IMG/VR virus record: IMGVR_UViG_2531839235_000024
Length of the DNA stretch: 38,024 bases
Strand: one strand, 5' to 3'
DNA from: a virus
Lineage: Duplodnaviria > Heunggongvirae > Uroviricota > Caudoviricetes
Shown here: positions 1-38,024 of the stretch, in pieces
How the letters are laid out: each line of letters opens with the position of its first letter
How positions within the stretch are numbered: position 1 is the first letter of the stretch
Position numbers and translations under genes: made by a program
The notes under the pieces: generated by a model
Database searches by the model: none
What the model was told of the DNA's origin: nothing
The model's input: the letters and a program-made list of their open reading frames with translations, nothing else

Positions 1-262
1 ATGAACAGGCTTTTTTCAGGTCGTTCCGATATGCCCTTTGCGCTGTTGCTTCTCGCACCCAGCTTATTACTGCTGGGCGGTCTGGTTGCGTGGCCAATGG
101 TGTCGAATATCGAAATTAGTTTTTTACGTCTGCCGCTCAATCCCAACATCGAGTCAACGTTTGTTGGGGTAAGCAACTATGTGCGTATTCTCTCCGATCC
201 CGGCTTCTGGCACTCGCTGTGGATGACGGTCTGGTATACCGCGTATAGCGCGGCGATTTTTT
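1..262 (+). pseudogene. 5' fragment of a host sugar ABC transporter permease gene (MalF/UgpA-like; possibly ycjO) interrupted by the prophage insertion
   Basis: ORF 1..354 starts with a hydrophobic N-terminal TM segment and the permease-typical FVG..N(Y/F)V...W...W(Y)T motif, then loses permease character near 245-265 where repeated TTTGATAC end motifs begin. The ycjO identity is from memory and unverified. Confidence 0.5.
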
Positions 263-330
263 TGATACCGATTTGCATTTCATTTGATACCGCTGAAAAA
301 CGCCGATACGCAACTTATTTGATACTAAAT
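258..330. repeat. Putative transposase-binding end repeats (three direct TTTGATAC(C/T) motifs at 261-269, 283-291, 318-326)
   Basis: Seen directly in the sequence, between the mom stop (372) and the host gene fragment; one sub-motif (CTGAAAAACGCC, 292-303) resembles the CGAAAAACGCG of the Mu R1 site as I recall it. Confidence 0.4.
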
Positions 331-371
331 CGGCGCTTTTCTTTTGGGTTTTAGAATGAGTTTTTAAGCGT

Positions 372-1109
372 TCACTCACTCTCTTTTAAACCAGTTTTAA
401 CTGTTTGTGGTTTTGGGTAAGGCTGGACTTTGAATAGCTTTGTGTTGAGGCGTTTTCTGGCCCTCTTGTTCAGAAACCGGATGTAACGAAACTGACGGAA
501 TTTATGAACACTGGCTCTGTCGATATTAGCCCTCAGATGTTCACCTCGCTGTCCGCCTCGTTTAATGGCATTCCTGCAAATCTCGTGATACCACTCGCCA
601 TCAAGTTCATAGAATGTTGATTCGTGGCTGCCTACATAATCAAAATTGCTTGCCTGATACACGACACCAAGACAGCCACAACGCTCATCTGCAAACGACT
701 GAACCCACTGTACCTGCGGATAAAGCTGCCTGATTAGCTTGAGCGCGTAACTGATTGCCCTTGATTCGGAGTTTCTCGGCATACAGTCATGCAGCCATAA
801 CCGGTTAAGCTCCATATATTCACGGTTCCGCGTGCCCGTTACGACGCGTGCACCACTGTTTGGATTAAGGGCATAGCCCCATTGCATTACGCCAACCAGC
901 TCCCGTTCTGAAAATATGCCCAGATGAAGGTAGGAGTTATTTACGAAACGGTGGCTGTAATGTTTATTGACGATGACCAGTCTGGCCAGCCAGCAACTTA
1001 TTGTCTCAACCCGCAACTCACGGGAGCCATAACCAACGATATTGTCGTTATAGCGAATAAGTTCAGGCGTGCTGATGATACGGGATGTGACTTGCTTTCT
1101 GTTCCCCAC
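372..1109 (-). CDS. mom: Mom-like DNA modification protein (adenine hypermodification, anti-restriction)
   Basis: 245-aa ORF at the extreme right end of the prophage, immediately downstream of and overlapping a Com-type zinc-finger gene, as in Mu; GTG start inferred from the ORF track. Confidence 0.7.
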
Positions 1110-1263
1110 GACAGGATTTCCTTGTGTATGTGGGGTGCTCTGTGGCGCTCGGAGATGTGATTTGATTGAGGGTTTTACAGCGCGGACATTTTACTTCCAG
1201 ATAACTGAAACTGGCCCGTGCCAGTAGCTTATTGCAGTGTCGGCACCGTATGTTTCGATACAT
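1063..1263 (-). CDS. com: Com translational activator of mom (zinc finger)
   Basis: Internal ATG at 1263 preceded by AGGAGG; product [30 protein letters not shown]...EHPT matches the Mu Com CxxC-N16-CxxC zinc finger pattern as I recall it; 3' end overlaps the mom start. Confidence 0.8.
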
Positions 1264-2153: not shown

Positions 2154-2336
2154 TCAGAGCGGGGTCGGGTCGTTTGGGGATGACGGTGCCTGTGCTGTTT
2201 TACTGAGTTTTTCAGCTGCCGCATCATCAATTTTACGGCGAATATAATTTCTGATGACCTTATAACCGCCGCTCACCAGATATAACGCACTGACCACTGC
2301 GCAGAAATAAAGCAGCATTGTATGAACGAATGTCAT
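2154..2336 (-). CDS. Hypothetical small membrane protein (60 aa, one N-terminal TM helix)
   Basis: Hydrophobic segment LLYFCAVVSALYLVSGG followed by a charged tail; AAGG-type RBS upstream; immediately upstream of the 81-aa gene on the same strand. Confidence 0.4.
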   Translation of the reverse strand: MTFVHTMLLYFCAVVSALYLVSGGYKVIRNYIRRKIDDAAAEKLSKTAQAPSSPNDPTPL

Positions 2337-2402
2337 ATAACCTTACCTTTGATATTGACTACATAATTCGTTATCGGGTAAAAACATCGAAGCGACTGAT
2401 AA

Positions 2403-2482
2403 CCACTCCTTCGGGAGTATTTTTATTTTCCTTTATGGGTTAGGTAGCTCCCGCCAGCCATATCATGACCGGCGGGATTTTT
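2403..2482 (+). terminator. Two tandem plus-oriented terminator-like hairpins (ACTCC-TTCG-GGAGT + T-run; CCCGCC...GGCGGG + T7)
   Basis: Stem-loops at about 2405-2428 and 2449-2482, each followed by a T-run on the plus strand; they abut or overlap the esterase stop codon (2483-2485). Confidence 0.3.
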
Positions 2483-4531
2483 TTATTCTGTTACCGCTTT
2501 TTTCACTTCCACCACAATGCTGTCAATCAGCACCGGGTAAGTTGCATTTTTTGTGATATCCGTTACGCGGAGTTTGTCCACCGGGAAAGTTCCTACTGGT
2601 GACTGCGTCAGGGTAAACGCGGCACCATCCTGACCATCAATAACCGGAATAACCTGAAGGCTGTTATTTCCTGCAAAACGGAAGGCCAGCGTATGCCATT
2701 CATTATCAAATGCACCAAAGGTTCCCAGTTTCTGGTTATTTGTTGCCACTTTTGCATTGTGGTACATCACATTCAGGTCTTTTGCGTCTGTCTGGATGTA
2801 GAACGATGCCAGCAGATTATTCCCTGCATCCCCTGTCAGGGTGACACCCTGCGGCAGAGAGGAAACCGGCCAGTAAAGCGCCATGACATACTGGTTTGCC
2901 ACCAGGTCGCCCGGTACTTTAAAACGACAACTGATTAAACCACCATTTTTCAGCAGTTCAGCACCAGTACCGGCATCATGATCCAGATACCAGGATGATT
3001 TACCTGTTTCCTTGGTCAGTTTCATTGCCTTACCACCTGTGCCTCCTGCATCACTGATAATTTCAGCTTTACCGCCAGCCGGCTCCCAGCCCTGGGCTTT
3101 CAGATTTCCTTCTGACTCACTGACACGGTAAGACAGCAGTGTTGTGGTTACTGCTTCAGTTTCTGAAGGTGACGGCACTGGTGCTTCAGTTTCAGAAGAT
3201 GGAACATCGGCTTTTACTGTGGTTCGCCCCGCATGAGTCAGAACTGCCGTGGCCAGACGGTCGGAAATAATCCCACGACGTGCCCATGAACTGAAATGGC
3301 TGGCCCGGTCCGTAGATGTCCAGGTGGCGGCACTGTTACGCCACGTTGAGCCGTAATAACCAATGGATTCAATATCCGGGTCTTCTGCCGGATTGTTGGT
3401 GGGTACATTCGCGCCATTTTCATCTGTCATTAATGGGACGAAATGAATGTTTTTATCTGTTTTATTTTTGTAGCCGTCATAGATTGCCTGGTATGCCTGT
3501 TCGTTTTTCTGTTTCCAGAAATACGTGGTATCACCACAAATCCACGGAACGCCAGCAGCACTGCCACCGGTACACTGTTCCGCCTGTTCAGCCAGGTCTG
3601 CGCGGAATTTTTCCACCATCGCCAGAAACAGCGCAGAATGCTCCGTCGGCTTCGCATCAATATCAAACTCGCCCTGCATCCACACCACAGCAAGCAGGCG
3701 GTTTTTCGGGTTCTTCGCCAGTGCCGCTTTTGTCCGGCTGATTAAGTCCTTATACAGCGGCTTATCCACACCCCAGCGGGCTGAGTCCTCTGAAGCACCC
3801 GTGCTGTCACTGTACGTGCCGTCAGCACCCGCCGTGAATGCAGAACCACCACGGCAGCAGGGAACCAGCAGAATCCCCGCATCTGCCGGAATAAACGGCA
3901 GCAGTTTTTTGGCAATGTGAAGCCCCTGACCCACGGTGCCATATTGCCCTTTAGCCACATCCGCTTTCGGGTGATTTTTTCCACTCATATCCTGCACATC
4001 ATGCAGACAGTGGTCGGCCAGAATGATGTCGTTATACTGACAGGCTTTACCTCCCGGCGTGACTGTACTGCGACGGGCTAACTGCATAATACGCGGTTCG
4101 GGGCGGTCATATGTCTCCGGCAGTGGCAGACCTTCACCGTAAGCCATACCGTTTGACTGACCAGCAAGAACCACCACGTAATACCAGGAAGGGGAGCTGG
4201 AAGCCGTTTCATTTCCTGCCGGACGGGTATGTGTTTCTGCATTATCCCAGTCTGACGGTTCAGTAGTACCGGCAACATCAGCACTTAACGGAATGACAGC
4301 ACCAATACCCGCTCCGGTAATTTCCACGTTCGGATCACCGGATACTGGCCTTACCCACAGGCAATCCTGTGTATTAAAACTGATGAGACAGTCAGCAAAT
4401 GTCATTCCTCCTTTCGTTTCAGCAGGAGGAAAGGGAGCCTCAAGAAATGCCGCTGTACCACCGGAAACTTTAACGGTAAAGTTTCCGGGCATTGATGATA
4501 GTTGAACCCATTTGGACGTCATAATATTCAT
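2483..4531 (-). CDS. Carbohydrate esterase, SASA/SGNH-hydrolase type (sialate O-acetylesterase-like, NanS-p-like) with a C-terminal lectin-like domain
   Basis: 682-aa ORF containing the esterase blocks VVLAGQSNGMAYGEG and VVWMQGEFD, a Ser/Thr/Pro/Glu-rich linker (SSETEAPVPSPSETEA) and a roughly 240-aa C-terminal domain; AGGA RBS before ATG at 4531. It has no counterpart at this position in Mu. Confidence 0.6.
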   Translation of the reverse strand: MNIMTSKWVQLSSMPGNFTVKVSGGTAAFLEAPFPPAETKGGMTFADCLISFNTQDCLWVRPVSGDPNVEITGAGIGAVIPLSADVAGTTEPSDWDNAETHTRPAGNETASSSPSWYYVVVLAGQSNGMAYGEGLPLPETYDRPEPRIMQLARRSTVTPGGKACQYNDIILADHCLHDVQDMSGKNHPKADVAKGQYGTVGQGLHIAKKLLPFIPADAGILLVPCCRGGSAFTAGADGTYSDSTGASEDSARWGVDKPLYKDLISRTKAALAKNPKNRLLAVVWMQGEFDIDAKPTEHSALFLAMVEKFRADLAEQAEQCTGGSAAGVPWICGDTTYFWKQKNEQAYQAIYDGYKNKTDKNIHFVPLMTDENGANVPTNNPAEDPDIESIGYYGSTWRNSAATWTSTDRASHFSSWARRGIISDRLATAVLTHAGRTTVKADVPSSETEAPVPSPSETEAVTTTLLSYRVSESEGNLKAQGWEPAGGKAEIISDAGGTGGKAMKLTKETGKSSWYLDHDAGTGAELLKNGGLISCRFKVPGDLVANQYVMALYWPVSSLPQGVTLTGDAGNNLLASFYIQTDAKDLNVMYHNAKVATNNQKLGTFGAFDNEWHTLAFRFAGNNSLQVIPVIDGQDGAAFTLTQSPVGTFPVDKLRVTDITKNATYPVLIDSIVVEVKKAVTE

Positions 4532-4621: not shown

Positions 4622-5182
4622 TTATTTTTCCGAAACGCTCGCAGGATAATAACGATAAAGGGTTGAAAGGCCGATATCAAAAATAAGTGCCACCTGTCTT
4701 CGACTGACACCCCCGGCCAGTAAACGCCCGACCTGCTCGTATTGTTCCTGCGTGAGACGACGGGGTCTGCCGCCGGTTCGTCCCCTTTCACGGGCAGCTG
4801 CAAGACCAGCCCGTGTCCGTTCGACAATTAATTCACGCTCCATTTCTGCCAGCGCACCCATTATGTGAAAAAAGAAGCGCCCCATGGGGGTTGACGTATC
4901 AATGTTGTCAGTAAGACTACGAAAATTTATCCCCTGTTGCTGTAATTCATCTGTCAGCGCAACAAGGTGGCGCATACTGCGCCCCAGCCTGTCCAGTTTC
5001 CAGACCATCAGTGTGTCACCGGGTTTTAGTTTCTTCAGTGCCCGCTTCAGTCCCGGCCGCTGTGTCGTTTTACCACTCATTTTGTCTTCAAAAATCTGCT
5101 CACATCCTGCACATTCCAGCGCATTTCTTTGTAAACCGGTGTTCTGGTCATTTGTTGATACGCGTATATAGCCAATCAGCAT
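4622..5182 (-). CDS. gin: Gin/Hin/Pin-family serine DNA invertase
   Basis: 186 aa; N-terminal MLIGYIRVSTNDQNTGLQRNALECAGCEQIFEDK...TLMVWKLDRLGRS and C-terminal HTH GGRPRRLT match Mu Gin and serine invertases nearly residue for residue. Confidence 0.92.
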   Translation of the reverse strand: MLIGYIRVSTNDQNTGLQRNALECAGCEQIFEDKMSGKTTQRPGLKRALKKLKPGDTLMVWKLDRLGRSMRHLVALTDELQQQGINFRSLTDNIDTSTPMGRFFFHIMGALAEMERELIVERTRAGLAAARERGRTGGRPRRLTQEQYEQVGRLLAGGVSRRQVALIFDIGLSTLYRYYPASVSEK

Positions 5183-5236: not shown

Positions 5237-5262
5237 ATCCCTGAAACCTCGGTTTACGGGAT
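5237..5262. repeat. gix/hix-like recombination site (ATCCCTGAAACC-TC-GGTTTACGGGAT), gin-proximal boundary of the invertible segment
   Basis: 26-bp near-perfect palindrome with a 2-bp core, half-sites ending in AAACC as in Hin/Gin crossover sites; lies 55 bp upstream of the gin ATG. Confidence 0.55.
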
Positions 5263-5607
5263 ACTGTAAACAGGGCCGCGAATGCCCTGCCATCGAACGG
5301 AACGGCTGTTGCAGCGAATAAACTCGCCACTCCAAGAAATATTAATGGTGTCCCATTTGACGGAACGCAGGATATAAATATTACATCGGGGATGACGCAG
5401 TCTGTGGCTGACTCACGTTATGTTCAAAGCATTCGAAGAGGTTCAAGGTCAACGATTGGAATGCAATATAATATTTTTGAAGTTCCTGACGGATGCGTAC
5501 TTACAGGGCTTGATGTCGCTGGTGATGGTAATGCAACGGTAACCGCATATTATCGACCTGTTCAGTTTCTGATAGATGGTTCGTGGAAAACAGCTTCCAG
5601 CGCATAA
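5251..5607 (+). CDS. Alternative tail-fibre C-terminal segment (Sv'-like; has no own start, expressed only after inversion)
   Basis: Plus-strand frame encodes GLRDTVNRAANALPSNGTAVAANKLATPRNINGVPFDGTQDINITSGMTQSVADSRYVQ..., about 80% identical to residues 178-236 of the minus-strand tail fibre and in frame with the crossover core. Confidence 0.6.
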   Translation, partial: GLRDTVNRAANALPSNGTAVAANKLATPRNINGVPFDGTQDINITSGMTQSVADSRYVQSIRRGSRSTIGMQYNIFEVPDGCVLTGLDVAGDGNATVTAYYRPVQFLIDGSWKTASSA

Positions 5608-5686
5608 AAGTGCAGTAGTTCAAAAAACAGATTATCTGAATAAATATATGATGATTTTGTCTTTTCAACAAAAACAAGGTGAAATA

Positions 5687-6208
5687 ATGGAGCTTATTAA
5701 CGTAAAACGATATTACCCGGAACACAAACCCTATGGTGAGGATGTTCAGTATTTCCAGAGTGAGGACGGAAGGGATTTTTATGAATCTATCCCGCTTTTC
5801 ACAAAGAAATACAAACTCTGTATTTCGCCTGTAACGGGTATTATCTGCTCTGTTGCTGAAGATGTCTCTGCTTTATATCCGGCAGGTTTTACTGTTGTTG
5901 AAGTGGACGAACTGCCGGAAGGTGTGAATATTGACGGTAACTGGCAGTGTTCTGATGGCCTGATATCAAAGGTGCCGGTAAACTGGAAGACGGTTGCTGA
6001 AAAGCGTCGCTCATCGCTGCTCCAGGAAGCCAACGAAACCGTGGATGACTGGAAAACAGAATTAAAACTGGACATGATTAGCGATGAAAATAAATTACAG
6101 CTGACGCGCTGGATGGCGTATATCCGACAGCTTAAAGAAATGCACTTTAATGATATTGCCAGTGAGGGGCATTACCAGGCGATTCCCTGGCCGGAAAAAC
6201 CGGAATAA
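5687..6208 (+). CDS. Tail fibre assembly chaperone (U'/Tfa-like)
   Basis: ATG at 5687 preceded by AAGGTG; 173 aa, typical size and position for the chaperone following the variable fibre segment inside the invertible region. Confidence 0.65.
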   Translation: MELINVKRYYPEHKPYGEDVQYFQSEDGRDFYESIPLFTKKYKLCISPVTGIICSVAEDVSALYPAGFTVVEVDELPEGVNIDGNWQCSDGLISKVPVNWKTVAEKRRSSLLQEANETVDDWKTELKLDMISDENKLQLTRWMAYIRQLKEMHFNDIASEGHYQAIPWPEKPE

Positions 6209-6242: not shown

Positions 6243-7154
6243 TTACACTGAACTTACCGTTCTCCAGGCATTATTAATATAAATCTGAACCGGGCGATAA
6301 TAGACCCCACCGATATTGTCCGCAGACCGGGAGCCGGTTTCCTGCACGTTAATACCGGAAAGCATACAACCGGAAGGTGCGCTGTAATTCCATGATATTT
6401 CATTGCCTCCGGGTGAATGATAGCTCTGTGCTCCAAGCTGAACATTCTGTACATACCGGCCATCTGCGGTTGACTGCGTCATTCCTGACGTGATGTTGAT
6501 ATCCTGCGTTCCGTCAAAAGGAACGCCATTAATATTTCTTGGGGTGGCGAGTCTGTTTGCTGCCACGGCGGTTCCACCCGATGGCAGGGCATCAGCAGCC
6601 TTATTTACCGTTTCCCGTAAACCGACGTTATCGATAAAAGCGCCTTTATCCGGAATGTCTGCGCCGTTCTGCTCCCTGCGCAGGTAACGGTTATCACCTT
6701 CGCTTTTGCTGTAAACATCCAGATTATTACGGGCGGTTCCCGCATTCTCCAGGTCGGCAAGGTTCTGATCCTTCGCCAGAGCATTAACGTCACCGGGACC
6801 AAGACTGTTTTTTGTGGCAAGCGCCCCAAGACCAAGATAACCACGGGCAAGACGCTGGGCTTCCGCACCGGCATCAGCAATTTCTTTCAGGTTGTTTTTC
6901 CGGGAAAAGGCATTCGCAGCGATAATGGCTTTAATGGACAGCGTAAGCTGGTTTAACTGCGCCTTATCCGGCTGAATACTGGCTTCAGCCAGAATATTCA
7001 GCAGTTCGGCCTGGAGAATATTCAGCCAGTCCTGACCAATCCAGCTGATACCTTTTTGTCCGTCACCTTCGGTAAACCAGGTGGTGGTATTACTCTGCGC
7101 CGGTGCCAGCGCAGGCATATTCGCCACGCCGGAATTATTATCAACATGAAACAT
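6243..7154 (-). CDS. Tail fibre protein (S-like; constant N-terminal part fused to the currently expressed variable C-terminus)
   Basis: 303 aa, follows gp48 with a TAATG stop/start overlap; its C-terminal third is paralogous to the plus-strand Sv' segment; a gix-like site lies inside the coding frame at 6612-6637. Confidence 0.75.
   Translation of the reverse strand: MFHVDNNSGVANMPALAPAQSNTTTWFTEGDGQKGISWIGQDWLNILQAELLNILAEASIQPDKAQLNQLTLSIKAIIAANAFSRKNNLKEIADAGAEAQRLARGYLGLGALATKNSLGPGDVNALAKDQNLADLENAGTARNNLDVYSKSEGDNRYLRREQNGADIPDKGAFIDNVGLRETVNKAADALPSGGTAVAANRLATPRNINGVPFDGTQDINITSGMTQSTADGRYVQNVQLGAQSYHSPGGNEISWNYSAPSGCMLSGINVQETGSRSADNIGGVYYRPVQIYINNAWRTVSSV
6612..6637. repeat. Second gix/hix-like site (TTCCCGTAAACC-GA-CGTTATCGATAA) inside the tail-fibre gene, inverted relative to the site at 5237-5262
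   Basis: Inner half-site and core are the reverse complement of the inner half of the first site (11 of 12 plus core); the flanking roughly 170-bp arms (5251-5430 vs 6445-6623) are inverted repeats of about 80% identity. Confidence 0.5.
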
Positions 7155-18446: not shown

Positions 18447-19394
18447 TTACAGATAATCCGCGACAACCAGCTCCAGCTTGCCCTTCATCTCGTTAGAGAC
18501 GGTTGCGTTTCCGTCTGCGAACAGTTCACGCTCCAGCAGCTGCACCGCCTGTTTTTCCAGCGAGGTGGGGACAACAATATGGGTGGGTTTGATGCCGAGT
18601 TTGCGGCCACCGTCAGCGGTAAATTCGCGCATGGCTGACCAGCCGTGCCACAGTGCATCCAGCGTCAGCGGTGACTGCATCATGTAGGCCATCTGCCAGA
18701 AGCCGTAGCCCACATTGCGACGGGCGGATGCACCAAACACAAATTCGTTATCGGTGAATGCGCGACCTTCATCGACTTTGGTCTGGGCAACCAGTTCAGC
18801 CTTACGGCGATCCTGATAAATCAGCGGTTTGATTGCGCGTGAACAGTCGAGCAGATACCAGGCAGGACCGCTGTAATCCGCTTGTGCACCGACAGAGCCG
18901 GTTTTTGCCACAAACATATTGCTGACCATCTGCGCATCCCCGGAGCCATCCACTTTGGGGTAAACAGGATGTTCGGTATCAAAGAAGTTCTGGCCGTCAT
19001 AGCAGGCCGCATTAATCCCGTCACGAAGAGCAGCAAAGACCAGTTCATCCGGTTGTGCCGCAGCAGCGCGCCCCATCTCCTGGAACAACGGGGAATAAAT
19101 ACCGAGGTTATCGTCTTCGAAGTCATCGCGGTTAATGGCGACGGTGCCTTCAAAGGTTTTGTTCACGATGGCATAGCCATAGGCCTTCATCTTCTCGATG
19201 ACGCGGGAGCCGATCCACTCACGGAACTGCGGGAACTGCCCCAGCCAGCCGTAGGTGTTGGATTTCGACGTGGACGGTACGGTCATCGCAATTTTTTTGT
19301 ACTGCGACGGGGCCATGGACATCCCGGCCTGAAAATCAGAACGGTAGCCCGTCATCAGGGCGGTGATCATCGCCGGTGTAATCGGGGTAGGCAT
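18447..19394 (-). CDS. Major head subunit (Mu T-like)
   Basis: 315 aa versus about 305 aa in Mu; follows the protease/scaffold gene. Confidence 0.75.
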   Translation of the reverse strand: MPTPITPAMITALMTGYRSDFQAGMSMAPSQYKKIAMTVPSTSKSNTYGWLGQFPQFREWIGSRVIEKMKAYGYAIVNKTFEGTVAINRDDFEDDNLGIYSPLFQEMGRAAAAQPDELVFAALRDGINAACYDGQNFFDTEHPVYPKVDGSGDAQMVSNMFVAKTGSVGAQADYSGPAWYLLDCSRAIKPLIYQDRRKAELVAQTKVDEGRAFTDNEFVFGASARRNVGYGFWQMAYMMQSPLTLDALWHGWSAMREFTADGGRKLGIKPTHIVVPTSLEKQAVQLLERELFADGNATVSNEMKGKLELVVADYL

Positions 19395-34428: not shown

Positions 34429-34656
34429 TTAGCTGACTTGTTTCGCACCAACAGAACGGCATATTCCGCTGTAAACGTCTGTCGCACCTTCTCGATCAAG
34501 TCCGGCAGATATCACCATTCGTGTGCGGTCATTAAATTCAAAAAGTAAATCGCCACATTCTTTATTTTCGGCCAGTGAAATCACCTTCACGTTATCGAAA
34601 TTAACCAGGTAAAAGCGTCCGTAAATATCAGGAATATTAAATACCGCCATAATCAC
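34429..34656 (-). CDS. Small protein at the Kil position (immediately downstream of B)
   Basis: 75 aa, similar in size and position to Mu Kil (74 aa); no sequence-level match claimed. Confidence 0.35.
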   Translation of the reverse strand: MIMAVFNIPDIYGRFYLVNFDNVKVISLAENKECGDLLFEFNDRTRMVISAGLDREGATDVYSGICRSVGAKQVS

Positions 34657-35585
34657 ACCTGTGAGAGTAATTCAGGGTTGGTATAAACCTCTTTAAAGGC
34701 CGCATTAATATGTTTTTCTGTCAGCGCCGCGCCTTCACCGCTGGCGGTGAGCCACGCCTGGTTAAGCGTATGTGTCAGAACGCGTAACGCTCCCGGCTTT
34801 TCAGCGATAGCCTGCATGACGGCCAGCTCGGCCTCACCACTGATCCCCCACGCCCTGGCAATGGCCAGCACATCCGCCTTTTTGGCCTTGCGAAGTTGTT
34901 TTGTACGGGCAAGACGGCTGAACAGGCGCGATAAATCATCAAAGGTGCGGCGTCCACCTTTAAACAATCCGCGCGGGTTACCAATAAGCACCATCCCGAT
35001 CCCCGTGGCGTCCTGAATTGCCCGGAGTTGCTCCAGACCGTCAATACCAAGATGATCCGCCTCATCCACAATAACCAGTCCACGCGTTCCCGTCAGGCGA
35101 CGGCGGATGGCGCGGGATAATGCCCCTTTGTTCGCGCGGGTGTAATCAATCCCCAGCGCATCGGCCAGCTCCAGCAGACACTCCGTGACGCTGGAGTGCG
35201 CGGGTGACAGGGTGATCATCCAGGTGTTTGGTTGCTCCTGGCAGTAATTACGGGCAGTGGCCGTTTTACCCACACCCGGTACGCCCACAATAACGTTAAT
35301 ACAGCCCATCAGACGAACCGCCTGAAACAGTGCGCGCAGCTCCTGGACTGTCTGCGTTTCCACAAACTGCGGCGGTTCCGGCAGTGCGCTTTGTTTATTC
35401 CAGTTCTCATACCAGGAACGCAGGGAAGCAGCCACAGCAGCGTTATCGCCTTTATATTTTCCCTTACGGAAAGCCGATAATGTGCCGTCGGAAATTCCCG
35501 CCTCTCTGGCGATGGCATACTGCGTCAGTACGCCGCCATCAATAAGTTCATCAATGGTCTTGATTACATCGTTAATATCAGTCAT
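34653..35585 (-). CDS. B: Transposition ATPase / target DNA activator B (MuB)
   Basis: 310 aa; N-terminal HTH, Walker A GVPGVGKT and Walker B LVIVDEADHLG, plus long colinear matches to Mu B (for example PEPPQFVETQTV, KKADV, QKPGALR). Confidence 0.9.
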   Translation of the reverse strand: MTDINDVIKTIDELIDGGVLTQYAIAREAGISDGTLSAFRKGKYKGDNAAVAASLRSWYENWNKQSALPEPPQFVETQTVQELRALFQAVRLMGCINVIVGVPGVGKTATARNYCQEQPNTWMITLSPAHSSVTECLLELADALGIDYTRANKGALSRAIRRRLTGTRGLVIVDEADHLGIDGLEQLRAIQDATGIGMVLIGNPRGLFKGGRRTFDDLSRLFSRLARTKQLRKAKKADVLAIARAWGISGEAELAVMQAIAEKPGALRVLTHTLNQAWLTASGEGAALTEKHINAAFKEVYTNPELLSQV

Positions 35586-35656
35586 ATTATTAACCTCTCA
35601 TTTGATACCTTGTTTAATCAAATAACCTGAGTCGCCGCTCGGGTTATTTTTTTATT

Positions 35657-37747
35657 TCAGGCCAGCGGGTCATTTTCTTTTAATTTCGCTTCCAGCAACT
35701 GCAATCCCCGCTGGAAATTACGCTCGTATTCTTCATCAGGTTCATCGTCAGCGACCGGTTGCTGAACGGTCACCGTATTACCCACAGGGCGGTATATGTT
35801 TTCCAGCCAGGGCTCCTGCGGCTTGTGCTCCAGCACGTTGACAACCTCATCCTCGGCATCACGGATTTTTTCCTCTGCGCGTTTACGCATGCCTTTAAGG
35901 CGTTGCTGCTGTTTGTAGTATTCCGCGCTAACCGGGAAGGCTTCGCGTTTATTACCGTCCCATACCGCCTCGCAAATCACGCTGCCATCCAGGCGACGTA
36001 CGGTAATTCGTTCGGCATCATGAATGTCATAGCTGATAAGCACCTTACGACCATGCTCGTCACGCAGCTCGGGCGCGTAGTAAATATTATTCAGCCAGCG
36101 TATTTCACAGCGTCTTACAGGGCGTTCCACCATCGGCCGGAACATATCCCGCAGCTCAACATCGGACAGCCATTCAATTTCCGTGTCCTCTTCCGCCAGG
36201 CGTTTTTTTCTGAACTCCGCCGGGCTGTAATGCTTGCCGTTCGGCTTCACCGGTAATTCATCGTGCGGCCGGTTGTTGTACCACTCAACACCGTCACGAA
36301 TGGCATCAATCAGTTCAGACCAGGACGGTAAATCACGCATCGCTGACTGCTGCCGGGCGTTCAGCCGTTTGCCCTGTTGCAGGGCAGTAAATGCCGAGCG
36401 TAAATCGCGGTTGGTTTTGCGTAACGTCTCGCGATCTGCACCTTTCCCGAAATAGGTGCGGTATTTACGGGCTATGCGCATCGGTAATGTGCGGTTAAGC
36501 CGTTCGATAATGCCTCGTCCCTGCGGATTACCGGCAATCCCGGTCGGGTGGTTAATCCCCAGTCGCGGCAGTATCCCCACAACCTCCTTATCCAGGATGT
36601 CGGCGGTTTCCCCGGAGCCGTTATCCGAGTAATACAGAAACGGTTTGCCGTGATGGCGAATGCCGTGCTGTATGGCACCGGCTACGGCGAAAACATTTTC
36701 AGCCAGGTCAAGGCTCCAGCCCACCACAAAGCGCGTGCCACCGTCGATAACAAAGGTCACTTCCGGTGCAAATGGCCGACCGTGAACCGGGTGTGCGCAT
36801 TTCAGCTTCATGCCGTGACCGTCACCAATCCAGACATAATTCACCGGCATTCTGGACCAGTCGCGGCGCGTGAATCCCTCAAGCTGGCGGTATTCACTGC
36901 CGGTCACCCGGCCTTTTTGTTTCACCACTTCCGGCAGTTTCTTCATTGCGCGGCGAATGGTGTCATAAGACGGCATGATATCGAGCATATAAGGCTCATC
37001 AGCGTGCCGGTGCTGCCATTCAGCGACAAAATCCTCGTAAGCCTCGGTCATTGGTCGGCCGTTTGACTGGCGATACTGCGCCAGAAATTCGGGCAGCCAG
37101 TTAATATCTTCGGCTTTTATTTCCTGGCGCTTACCCGGTGCCAGTAAAAGCAGGCGTTCAGCGGCGTTCTGCGCCTTGTTAAAGGCCGCAATCCAGCGTT
37201 TCAGCGTTATTTCACTCAACGCACGGCTGTTTCCCTTTTTGGCGTTCGCCGTCTCAACCATTGCCACAATGCGCTCGTCCAGTTGCGAACGTGCCAGGTT
37301 GTCAACGATAAACCGGATAGCTTTCGCACAGCTGAAACCGGGTTGTTGCGCGACTTTCATCACTTCGCTGACGATCGCGATTCGTGCATCAGCCACCTGG
37401 CGCTGGTTTTCAGTCAGGGCATTAAGGCGTTCAACCATCAGTTGTGGTGATCCGCGATATGCCTCCACCGCATCAACCACGGCAGGCGAGCGTCTGGCCT
37501 TTGTCACCACCGGAGCCGGTGATTCATCAGCTTTTTGCGTCATCAGTTGAAGGGCATAACGTTCACGCAATACTTGTTGCGCGCCAGAAGGCAAACAATC
37601 GATATTAAATTCGATTGCTTTTGTCCCCTTACGTTTGCGTAACATGGCTGCATTTCCCGCAGCTGCTTTTGTGAGTCGATGGCGAATGTTATGTTCCATC
37701 ATTGGTAAATCAGGAAGACCAACACATTCTTTTGCTGTTACCCACAT
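35657..37747 (-). CDS. A: DDE transposase A (MuA)
   Basis: 696 aa; N-terminus MWVTAKECVGLPDLP parallels Mu A MELWVSPKECANLPGLP; size and position (ner-A-B). Confidence 0.9.
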   Translation of the reverse strand: MWVTAKECVGLPDLPMMEHNIRHRLTKAAAGNAAMLRKRKGTKAIEFNIDCLPSGAQQVLRERYALQLMTQKADESPAPVVTKARRSPAVVDAVEAYRGSPQLMVERLNALTENQRQVADARIAIVSEVMKVAQQPGFSCAKAIRFIVDNLARSQLDERIVAMVETANAKKGNSRALSEITLKRWIAAFNKAQNAAERLLLLAPGKRQEIKAEDINWLPEFLAQYRQSNGRPMTEAYEDFVAEWQHRHADEPYMLDIMPSYDTIRRAMKKLPEVVKQKGRVTGSEYRQLEGFTRRDWSRMPVNYVWIGDGHGMKLKCAHPVHGRPFAPEVTFVIDGGTRFVVGWSLDLAENVFAVAGAIQHGIRHHGKPFLYYSDNGSGETADILDKEVVGILPRLGINHPTGIAGNPQGRGIIERLNRTLPMRIARKYRTYFGKGADRETLRKTNRDLRSAFTALQQGKRLNARQQSAMRDLPSWSELIDAIRDGVEWYNNRPHDELPVKPNGKHYSPAEFRKKRLAEEDTEIEWLSDVELRDMFRPMVERPVRRCEIRWLNNIYYAPELRDEHGRKVLISYDIHDAERITVRRLDGSVICEAVWDGNKREAFPVSAEYYKQQQRLKGMRKRAEEKIRDAEDEVVNVLEHKPQEPWLENIYRPVGNTVTVQQPVADDEPDEEYERNFQRGLQLLEAKLKENDPLA

Positions 37748-37757
37748 ACATCCCCCA

Positions 37758-38024
37758 TCAAGCCACTTCTCTGGCGTCCACCTGGTATCTGCTGGGCCAG
37801 ATTACAGCAGGTTCAACCCCTATTTTTTCGGCGATGGCGGCTTCGTATTTACGGCACTGGCGGTAAAACACATTGCGCATTGATCCGCTTTTTAATCCTA
37901 ACTCCCTTTCCAGTTCAGGGAGGTCTGTGCCTTTGTTTTCAAGGGCTGCATATACCGCTTTAGCAGACCAGTCACACCCCTCTCGAACAAACAAATTATT
38001 CGATGCTTGTCTGGATACCCTCAT
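37758..38024 (-). CDS. ner: Ner-like DNA-binding regulator (Nlp/Ner family); start coincides with the window edge
   Basis: C-terminal EPAVIWPSRYQ matches the Ner/Nlp signature (Mu Ner KPEVIWPSRYQ); immediately upstream of A. Confidence 0.8.
   Translation of the reverse strand: MRVSRQASNNLFVREGCDWSAKAVYAALENKGTDLPELERELGLKSGSMRNVFYRQCRKYEAAIAEKIGVEPAVIWPSRYQVDAREVA

Follow-up and report, generated by a model that had tools for sequence, protein, structure and literature searches.

Where does the bacterial chromosome stop and the phage begin in a piece of viral DNA that opens inside a host gene, and what does the phage end carry? The question is raised by IMG/VR virus record IMGVR_UViG_2531839235_000024 (38,024 nucleotides (nt); hereafter "the window", the whole stretch of DNA that was analysed), whose first bases belong to the Escherichia coli gene ycjO and whose remainder resembles Sp18, a Mu-like prophage of E. 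coli O157:H7 Sakai. The original prediction, made from the letters of the window, had proposed the right end of a transposable, Mu-like prophage inside a host permease gene, a possible TG/CA terminus at 263-264, a target duplication of 5 base pairs (bp), and three direct repeats that might be transposase-binding sites. We consider it very likely that an Sp18-type Mu-like prophage transposed into ycjO at codon 81/82 and that 244-341 is its right attachment site (attR), equipped with transposase sites. The junction at 243|244, the terminal 5'-TATAGCGCGGCGA, three 22-bp repeats, their inverted left-end copies in relatives and the 4-bp duplications of the family can be read directly from the sequences compared.

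The host gene ycjO and the terminus of the phage

The window opens with an ATG, which begins a plus-strand open reading frame (ORF) of 117 codons (1-354). Many E. coli O157 genomes have a ycjO whose first 244 nt match bases 1-244 with 100% identity, and there the product is annotated as a carbohydrate ATP-binding cassette (ABC) transporter permease; the gene is of the MalF/UgpA type. In a comparison with the intact allele the first 81 translated codons were identical to YcjO residues 1-81. The predicted N-terminus of a MalF/UgpA-type permease is thus that of YcjO. The features around the junction are as follows.

1-243, plus strand: 5' fragment of ycjO, codons 1-81 of 293, carbohydrate ABC transporter permease (100% identity, O157 genomes)
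1-354, plus strand: chimeric ORF, YcjO residues 1-81 followed by 36 phage-end codons (ORF list, translation comparison)
240-243, no strand: CGCG, predicted right-hand copy of the 4-bp target duplication, the other copy lying outside the window (8 of 8 related insertions; intact sequence ...ACCGCGTTGG)
244-256, plus strand: terminal 13 nt of the phage, TATAGCGCGGCGA, with T244 as the last base pair and the dinucleotide TA instead of TG (60 of 60 records, junctions)

The intact allele (882 nt, 293 codons; positions 701-1582 of the reference locus L001, NZ_AP018488.1) runs on gcgT|TGGTGG where the window reads gcgT|ATAGCG, and past the junction the two continue as ...TATACCGCGTTGGTGGTGG and ...TATACCGCGTATAGCGCGG, respectively. 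Permease character ends at 243/244, the lower edge of the predicted interval (245-265), and the alignment with intact ycjO stops at 244, with none of it reaching beyond 300. The phage-read tail of the chimeric ORF consists of 36 unrelated codons (YSAAIFLIPICISFDTAEKRRYATYLILNRRFSFGF) up to the stop. The remainder of ycjO was not found anywhere in the 38,024-nt window, and Pfam returned no domain for the chimeric ORF 1-354, the ycjO fragment being too short to hold the permease domain. Judged by its sequence, ycjO is split after codon 81 of 293 by the phage insertion and would be incapable of giving a functional permease, in line with the predicted inactivation of the host transporter gene: the insertion at codon 81/82 would set the remaining 212 codons ~38.9 kb apart, and a polar effect on the downstream ycjP is to be expected. 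This ycjO junction occurred in 0 of 5426 complete E. coli genomes.

The annotation of an O157:H7 genome in which ycjO is intact (L001 1-680, NZ_AP018488.1) lists the upstream gene ycjN, encoding a substrate-binding protein, as a pseudogene interrupted by an internal stop. The transporter may already be defective in the O157 lineage, and with at least one O157:H7 genome whose ycjN is a pseudogene the phenotypic cost of losing ycjO may be small; for the host, the insertion would mean that one sugar-ABC permease gene is lost from an operon in which, in that genome, another gene is already a pseudogene. A perfect 6-bp hairpin at 239-253 (CCGCGTATAGCGCGG; CCGCG-TAT-AGCGCGG, followed by a T-run) spans the host/phage junction and was flagged as terminator-like by the scan; it is a by-product of a CGCG target meeting a CGCG-containing phage end, an accident of the insertion.

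From ~244 on, the window matches Mu-like prophages in 232 of the 5426 complete E. coli genomes. The terminus was mapped with the query 215-640, which holds too little ycjO to seed a host match; it hit 284 places in 234 records from 232 genomes, with different host genes adjoining. From the ranking of all 234 matches, 60 records were drawn at even steps, and all 60 matched from 244 or earlier, mostly from exactly 244, beside sorM, psiE, comR, torS, rihA, dprA, melA, garP/garL, tail genes and others. Were T244 a host base, some three in four insertions would be expected to start at 245; since 60 of 60 include 244, this base is phage DNA. The phage thus has T244 as its last base pair and starts 5'-TATAGCGCGGCG...; the match of T244 to the next base of ycjO is coincidental. 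Host identity stops here and the DNA beyond it matches Mu-like prophages, so that the predicted prophage right end in a host permease gene stands.

Read inward, the right end begins 5'-TATAGCGCGGCGATTTTTTTGATACC and the left end of complete copies 5'-TGTAACCAGGTGAATCATTTGATACC. The terminal dinucleotides are TG on the left (TGTAACC...) and TA on the right (T244 A245; transferred strand ...TATA-3') in all sampled copies. The predicted TG/CA type of terminus was thus not borne out: the right end is 5'-TA and the transferred strand ends ...TA-3', departing from the TG...CA rule of Mu-like phages, a departure that is not disqualifying given the TA-TA precedent in Leptospira. A terminus at A245 combined with a 5-bp duplication was tempting, since T244 matches ycjO and three insertions (L002, L005 and ERL06) have T at the fifth position; it was ruled out by the presence of T244 in 60 of 60 records and by five insertions that exclude any 5-bp register. 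Models with a 5-bp stagger and a retained flap nucleotide, or with cleavage 1 nt inside or outside the terminus, were rejected by reasoning, because under them base 244 should vary or the target should contribute a fixed base, and neither was observed.

Target-site duplications in the Sp18-type family

Both junctions were extracted for ten related prophages, eight of which proved to be simple insertions (L002, L004, L005, L006/L007, L008/L009, L010/L011, L020/L021 and L022/L023) and two rearranged. In all eight simple insertions an exact 4-bp direct repeat abuts TATAGCG... on one side and ...GGTTACA on the other (AACG, AGTG, TTAT, TTTA, TACT, CTAT, AACA and CTTT), and five of the eight exclude a 5-bp repeat in either register. 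Predicted empty sites, with the 4-mer present once, matched uninterrupted genomes over 136 of 136 nt without gaps for the insertions in Sakai sorM and YB14-1 psiE. As a control, the canonical Mu prophage of E. coli W was put through the same procedure and gave TG...CA termini and the 5-bp repeat GCGGC. The Sp18-type family makes 4-bp target duplications, and the 5 bp of the original prediction has to be replaced by this value.

For the copy in the window, one flank is visible, the CGCG at 240-243, and a second copy is predicted on the far side. The left junction is predicted to read ...GGTTACA|CGCG|TTGGTGG, i.e., ...GGTATCAAATGATTCACCTGGTTACA|CGCG|TTGGTGGTGGCGGGCAGC, so that beyond base 38024 one would expect ...CACCTGGTTACA and then CGCGTTGGTGGTGG, the rest of ycjO. 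A gapped pattern of this predicted left junction gave 0 matches in genome and metagenome contig collections.

The two rearranged prophages have unrelated flanks and no flanking repeat: the copy L003 (NZ_CP034806.1) lies between genes for an Ig-like protein and DUF5682, and that of strain 2313 (L012/L013, NZ_AP027159.1) between torS and hyaE. Many genomes hold 2-4 copies of the Sp18-type prophage, and the unrelated flanks in 2 of the 10 prophages imply inversions or deletions between phage copies. In Sakai, the annotated borders of Sp18 (5040971..5079729) differ from the conserved termini (5040970..5079724, flanks TAAA), the left being 1 nt inside and the right 5 nt outside.

Repeats at the right end and their probable role

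The repeated motif at the right end, TTTGATAC, has the core TTTGATACY, present as TTTGATACC at 261-269 and 283-291 and as TTTGATACT at 318-326; the predicted starts (261, 283 and 318) were exact. The core 9-mer (TTTGATACC/T) occurs five times in the window against 0.47 expected (five or more copies in 0 of 100 shuffles), three of the five being clustered within 66 nt, and a repeat search extended these three to direct repeats of 16-23 nt with spacings of 22 and 35 nt. The motif is absent from the intact, uninterrupted ycjO locus. Sites of 22 bp were defined with the 9-mer core at the inner edge; they are listed here with the neighbouring hairpin and gene and with the proteins that would act on them (lengths in amino acids, aa).

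249-270, plus strand: R1, putative 22-bp transposase-binding site CGCGGCGATTTTTTTGATACCG, nt 6-27 from the terminus (position as in Mu R1)
271-292, plus strand: R2, putative transposase-binding site ATTTGCATTTCATTTGATACCG, nt 28-49 (position as in Mu R2)
306-327, plus strand: R3, putative transposase-binding site ATACGCAACTTATTTGATACTA, nt 63-84, direct orientation (motif kept in prophage L014, flanking bases changed)
295-341, minus strand: 13-bp inverted repeat (295-307 / 329-341) with A-run/T-run flanks and the R3 core in the loop (repeat search, RNA fold)
372-1109, minus strand: mom, Mom family adenine-modification protein, last gene before the right end (Pfam PF25680, E = 4.5e-77; annotation of L002)
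34653-35585, minus strand: B, MuB-like AAA+ target-DNA activator, 310 aa (Pfam Phage-MuB_C and AAA_22; 49% identity to MuB)
35657-37747, minus strand: A, DDE transposase, 696 aa, expected to bind R1-R3 (Pfam Mu-transpos_C and HTH_Tnp_Mu_1)

Counted from the right terminus, the cores lie at nt 18-26, 40-48 and 75-83. Complete relatives have cores at nt 18-26, 113-121 and 165-173 from the left terminus, inverted relative to the right end and corresponding to left-end sites L1 (6-27), L2 (101-122) and L3 (153-174). Three copies of the motif per end, inverted between the ends, make up a layout like that of Mu. A weight matrix built from the six sites scored these at 20-28 bits and the best internal sequence at 14 bits or less, a circular test that returned no comparable internal site. 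Two further exact copies of TTTGATACC were found at 35601-35609 (plus strand), within the 71 nt that separate the transposase gene from B, and at 18975-18983 (minus strand); their extended 22-nt match reaches 13-14 bits, and both copies, at 18975 and 35601, are probably due to chance.

For comparison, sites on the Mu genome were placed with the published 22-bp MuA-binding consensus, reportedly that of Craigie et al. from 1984, which gave R1 at 6-27, R2 at 28-49, R3 at 56-77 (inverted), L1 at 6-27 and L3 at 151-172. The best match to this consensus within 244-443 has 7 mismatches out of 22, against 0-5 for Mu's own sites; of the resemblance to MuA-binding sites that the original prediction had suggested checking, the architecture alone holds.

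Relatives tell what changes and what stays. The Pseudomonas phage VW-6B (MF975721.1), whose transposase is 47% identical, carries the repeat TTYTGGACW at nt 18-26, 40-48 and 73-81, against 18-26, 40-48 and 75-83 for the cores of the window phage. A 74%-identical transposase was found in Shigella flexneri SFBU1023 and E. coli ECMA0423, where the left end has CAAGATAAM at nt 18-26, 89-97 and 141-149, with the same 52-nt spacing between L2 and L3 as in the window family; the TG terminus of this relative was placed by the 18-26 register and not from independent junctions. A protein-binding role is supported because the motif changes with the transposase while the positions stay. The left end of VW-6B was not found, its record starting 53 nt from the repressor gene. 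L014 (NZ_CP027459.1, E. coli 90-3040), a different Mu-like prophage, resembles the window no further than ~100 nt into the right end (93%), and none of its seven substitutions within those 100 nt touches any of the three cores. L014 has a DNA cytosine methyltransferase where the window phage has mom, which looks like an exchange of cargo beside a conserved attR. The TTTGATACY repeats R1-R3 are very probably transposase-binding sites, as predicted; their binding role, co-evolving with the transposase, is suggested by architecture and comparison.

Three other readings of the right end were weighed. The phage might end at the TG of 263-264, with the repeats beginning at or inside the terminus and a Mu-type 5-bp duplication, and a TG is indeed present there; TG/CA ends with 5 bp are the rule for Mu, as in the E. 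coli W control (PMC8705779). This TG lies inside the core of R1, ~20 nt downstream of the real terminus, and bases 244-262 are not ycjO sequence and are conserved beside dozens of unrelated host flanks; with 4-bp duplications that abut the equivalents of T244 in 8 of 8 insertions, 5 of which exclude 5 bp in either register, we give this reading practically no weight. It is also improbable, if less extremely so, that the repeats are 3' regulatory or structural elements of mom (a terminator, RNA stability) or sites for another phage or host protein. The hairpin at 295-341 folds on the mom strand with -23.2 kcal/mol (z = -3.75) and probably serves as the intrinsic terminator of mom, with the R3 core in its loop; but the motif recurs three times, inverted, at the other phage end 39 kb from mom, with its first copy at the same distance from the terminus (nt 18-26), the 22-nt register of R1-R2 is that of Mu with L3 within 2 nt of Mu's, a change of transposase is accompanied by a change of motif at constant positions, and the internal 9-mer copies have no extended match. 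Finally, the copy in the window could be fixed and immobile, or truncated or rearranged at its unseen left end, so that the sites are relics and the far side does not adjoin the remainder of ycjO. The left end does lie outside the window, rearrangements between copies occur (the 2 of 10 related prophages with unrelated flanks, L003 and strain 2313), and the same ycjO insertion was seen in no genome of the searched collections; this copy is nevertheless ~98% identical to copies at many loci and has both its A (696 aa) and its B (310 aa) ORF at full length, an in silico analysis judged Sp18 intact (PMC2669165), and the many insertion sites make the family evidently mobile. We regard a defective copy as unlikely.

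Several points weigh against a mobile prophage with transposase sites in its attR. Pfam shows only the enhancer-type Mu DNA-binding domain in transposase A, without the Mu end-binding domains; the assignment of the TTTGATACY repeats is built on architecture and comparison; no binding or transposition experiment for this phage was found in the searchable literature; R3, with its core in the loop of a terminator-like hairpin, could be constrained otherwise; and, as the left end lies outside the window, the 4-bp duplication and the completeness of this prophage are predictions.

If an Sp18-type prophage did transpose into ycjO, as we hold very likely, the N-terminal region of transposase A would bind R1-R3 and L1-L3 and pair the ends into a transpososome, assisted by the MuB-like ATPase (34653-35585). 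The nick would fall after the terminal A opposite T244, giving a transferred strand ...GCGCTATA-3', and both 3' ends would be joined to target phosphates staggered by 4 bp, with duplication of the CGCG at 240-243 as the outcome. Transcription of mom would most likely end at the hairpin of 295-341, whose loop contains the R3 core.

The prophage and its comparison with known systems

Two further features define the element as a whole.

244-38024, minus strand: Sp18-type Mu-like transposable prophage from its right terminus to the start of a ner-like gene, with ~1.1 kb more expected beyond the window (~98% identity to L002-L005)
1063-1263, minus strand: com, Com family regulator of mom (annotation of L002 mapped onto the window)

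The window is ~98% identical over ~37 kb to four complete prophage copies (L002-L005), and O157:H7 Sakai Sp18 (NC_002695.2) is 97.5% identical to bases 244-640. By this near-identity, and by terminal sequences that are the same as those of Sakai Sp18, 244-38024 is to be taken as a known Sp18-type Mu-like transposable prophage of E. coli. The element bears the hallmarks of a Mu-like phage: adjacent genes for a DDE transposase and a MuB-type ATPase near the left end, mom (by Pfam) with Com, Mor, Gam and recombinase annotated in the 98%-identical L002, and insertion at many unrelated chromosomal sites, every junction examined being different. Membership in phage Mu proper (Muvirus mu / D108 / SfMu) does not apply, transposase A being only 23% identical to MuA end to end (E = 1e-13) and the Mu site consensus being unmatched. 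A phmmer search of transposase A against PDB retrieved retroviral integrase cores only and none of the MuA structures.

The gene order in L002 is Mom, Com, recombinase by the tail-fibre genes, baseplate, tail, head and lysis, followed by Mor, Gam, AAA ATPase, a "Mu transposase C-terminal domain" protein, a helix-turn-helix protein and a repressor-side gene. The start codon of the ner-like gene marks the end of the window, with the repressor and the left end outside it; the left terminus is predicted at the window-equivalent position ~39159 (from L003). The ner-like region (37581-38024) matches the L003-type copy only, not L002, L004 or L005, which means that the early/immunity region is, on these alignments, mosaic among otherwise 98%-identical prophages.

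Inverted repeats of 158 nt (82%) at 5245-5402 and about 6472-6629 flank a tail-fibre-assembly gene segment, adjoined by a Gin-like recombinase gene (4622-5182, minus strand), an arrangement like an invertible G segment; in three of the four relatives, 5394-5687 either has been replaced or retains only 84% identity. Between com and the invertase gene sits an ORF for a DUF6645 protein (2483-4531, minus strand, 682 aa), and positions 2251-3945 in this region have 78-81% nucleotide identity with genes of Shiga-toxin (Stx)-converting lambdoid phages, some of which are annotated yjhS / 9-O-acetyl-N-acetylneuraminic acid deacetylase; by this similarity the DUF6645 gene appears to be cargo common to unrelated phage types. 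ARAGORN found no tRNA gene in the whole window; RefSeq lists a "tRNA-OTHER" inside two related prophages (L002 21483-21563; L005 18622-18702).

There is nothing unusual in a new insertion site or in a confirmed attR; the TG...TA ends and the 4-bp duplication are less ordinary. That these depart from the paradigms of Mu (5 bp, CA) and B3 (6 bp, CA) is well supported at the level of sequence. It is possible, if somewhat short of probable, that the Sp18-type phages, present in ~4% of complete E. coli genomes, use an undescribed Mu-family transpososome with asymmetric TG...TA ends and a 4-bp stagger, and that this is both true and new; we found no report of the ends of Sp18, of its duplication length or of a 4-bp Mu-like duplication in the searchable literature (subscription papers outside it). 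The base-exact borders (TGTAACC...GCGCTATA with a 4-bp duplication) are of use in genome annotation, the prophage family being common among Shiga-toxin-producing E. coli and moving between strains, where it inactivates genes and seeds rearrangements. The family is also a natural variant of the Mu paradigm, in which the site layout is kept though the transposase is so distant from MuA, with T instead of the "invariant" C as the penultimate nucleotide at one end and a 4-bp stagger, and it offers a convenient setting in which to ask what determines the length of the stagger and the specificity for terminal nucleotides in DDE transpososomes.

The closest known element is Sakai Sp18, which shares the element type, the termini (TATAGCGCGG...GGTTACA) and the gene order (mom/com, invertase, tail, head, lysis, Mor, Gam, B, A, ner). 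It differs in its insertion site, sorM instead of ycjO, and the window copy is unlike Sp18 in being a mosaic with an L003-type ner/immunity region. Phi804-3 of strain FRIK804 is one of the equivalent Mu-like prophages scattered among Shiga-toxin-producing E. coli, for which strain-specific insertion sites have been noted (PMC7430833), and Sp18 has been judged Mu-like (PMC2669165).

With Mu, the window phage has in common the identical coordinates of R1, R2 and L1 and the near-identical one of L3, three sites per end with a large gap between L1 and L2, mom as the last gene before attR, and the MuB partner. The two differ in the core (...CGAAAA in Mu, unrelated in sequence to TTTGATACY), in R3, which is inverted in Mu and direct here, in the transposase, and in the right terminus and duplication (TG and 5 bp in Mu; TA and 4 bp in the window family). 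Members of the DDE/retroviral-integrase superfamily produce staggers of 4 to 6 bp, and a strongly diverged transposase fits a different site sequence and, plausibly, also a different stagger. Among isolated phages the closest transposase is that of VW-6B, followed by those of D3112/DMS3-like phages at about 29%. The right end of VW-6B, TGTAGCGCGGCGA, has 12 of the 13 terminal nt in common with the window phage; it differs in its canonical TG terminus, its repeat, its host and the rest of its genome.

According to a survey, TG-CA ends are conserved in all described Mu- and B3-like phages, with duplications of 5 or 6 bp, and the TA-TA transposable prophages of Leptospira are the exception (PMC8705779). 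Apart from the Leptospira prophages, no transposable prophage described with termini other than TG/CA turned up in the searched literature. The Leptospira prophages resemble the window family in this respect; they differ in having TA at both ends, a B3/Tn552-type transposase and a 6-bp duplication, whereas the Sp18-type phages combine TA on the right with TG on the left and 4 bp.

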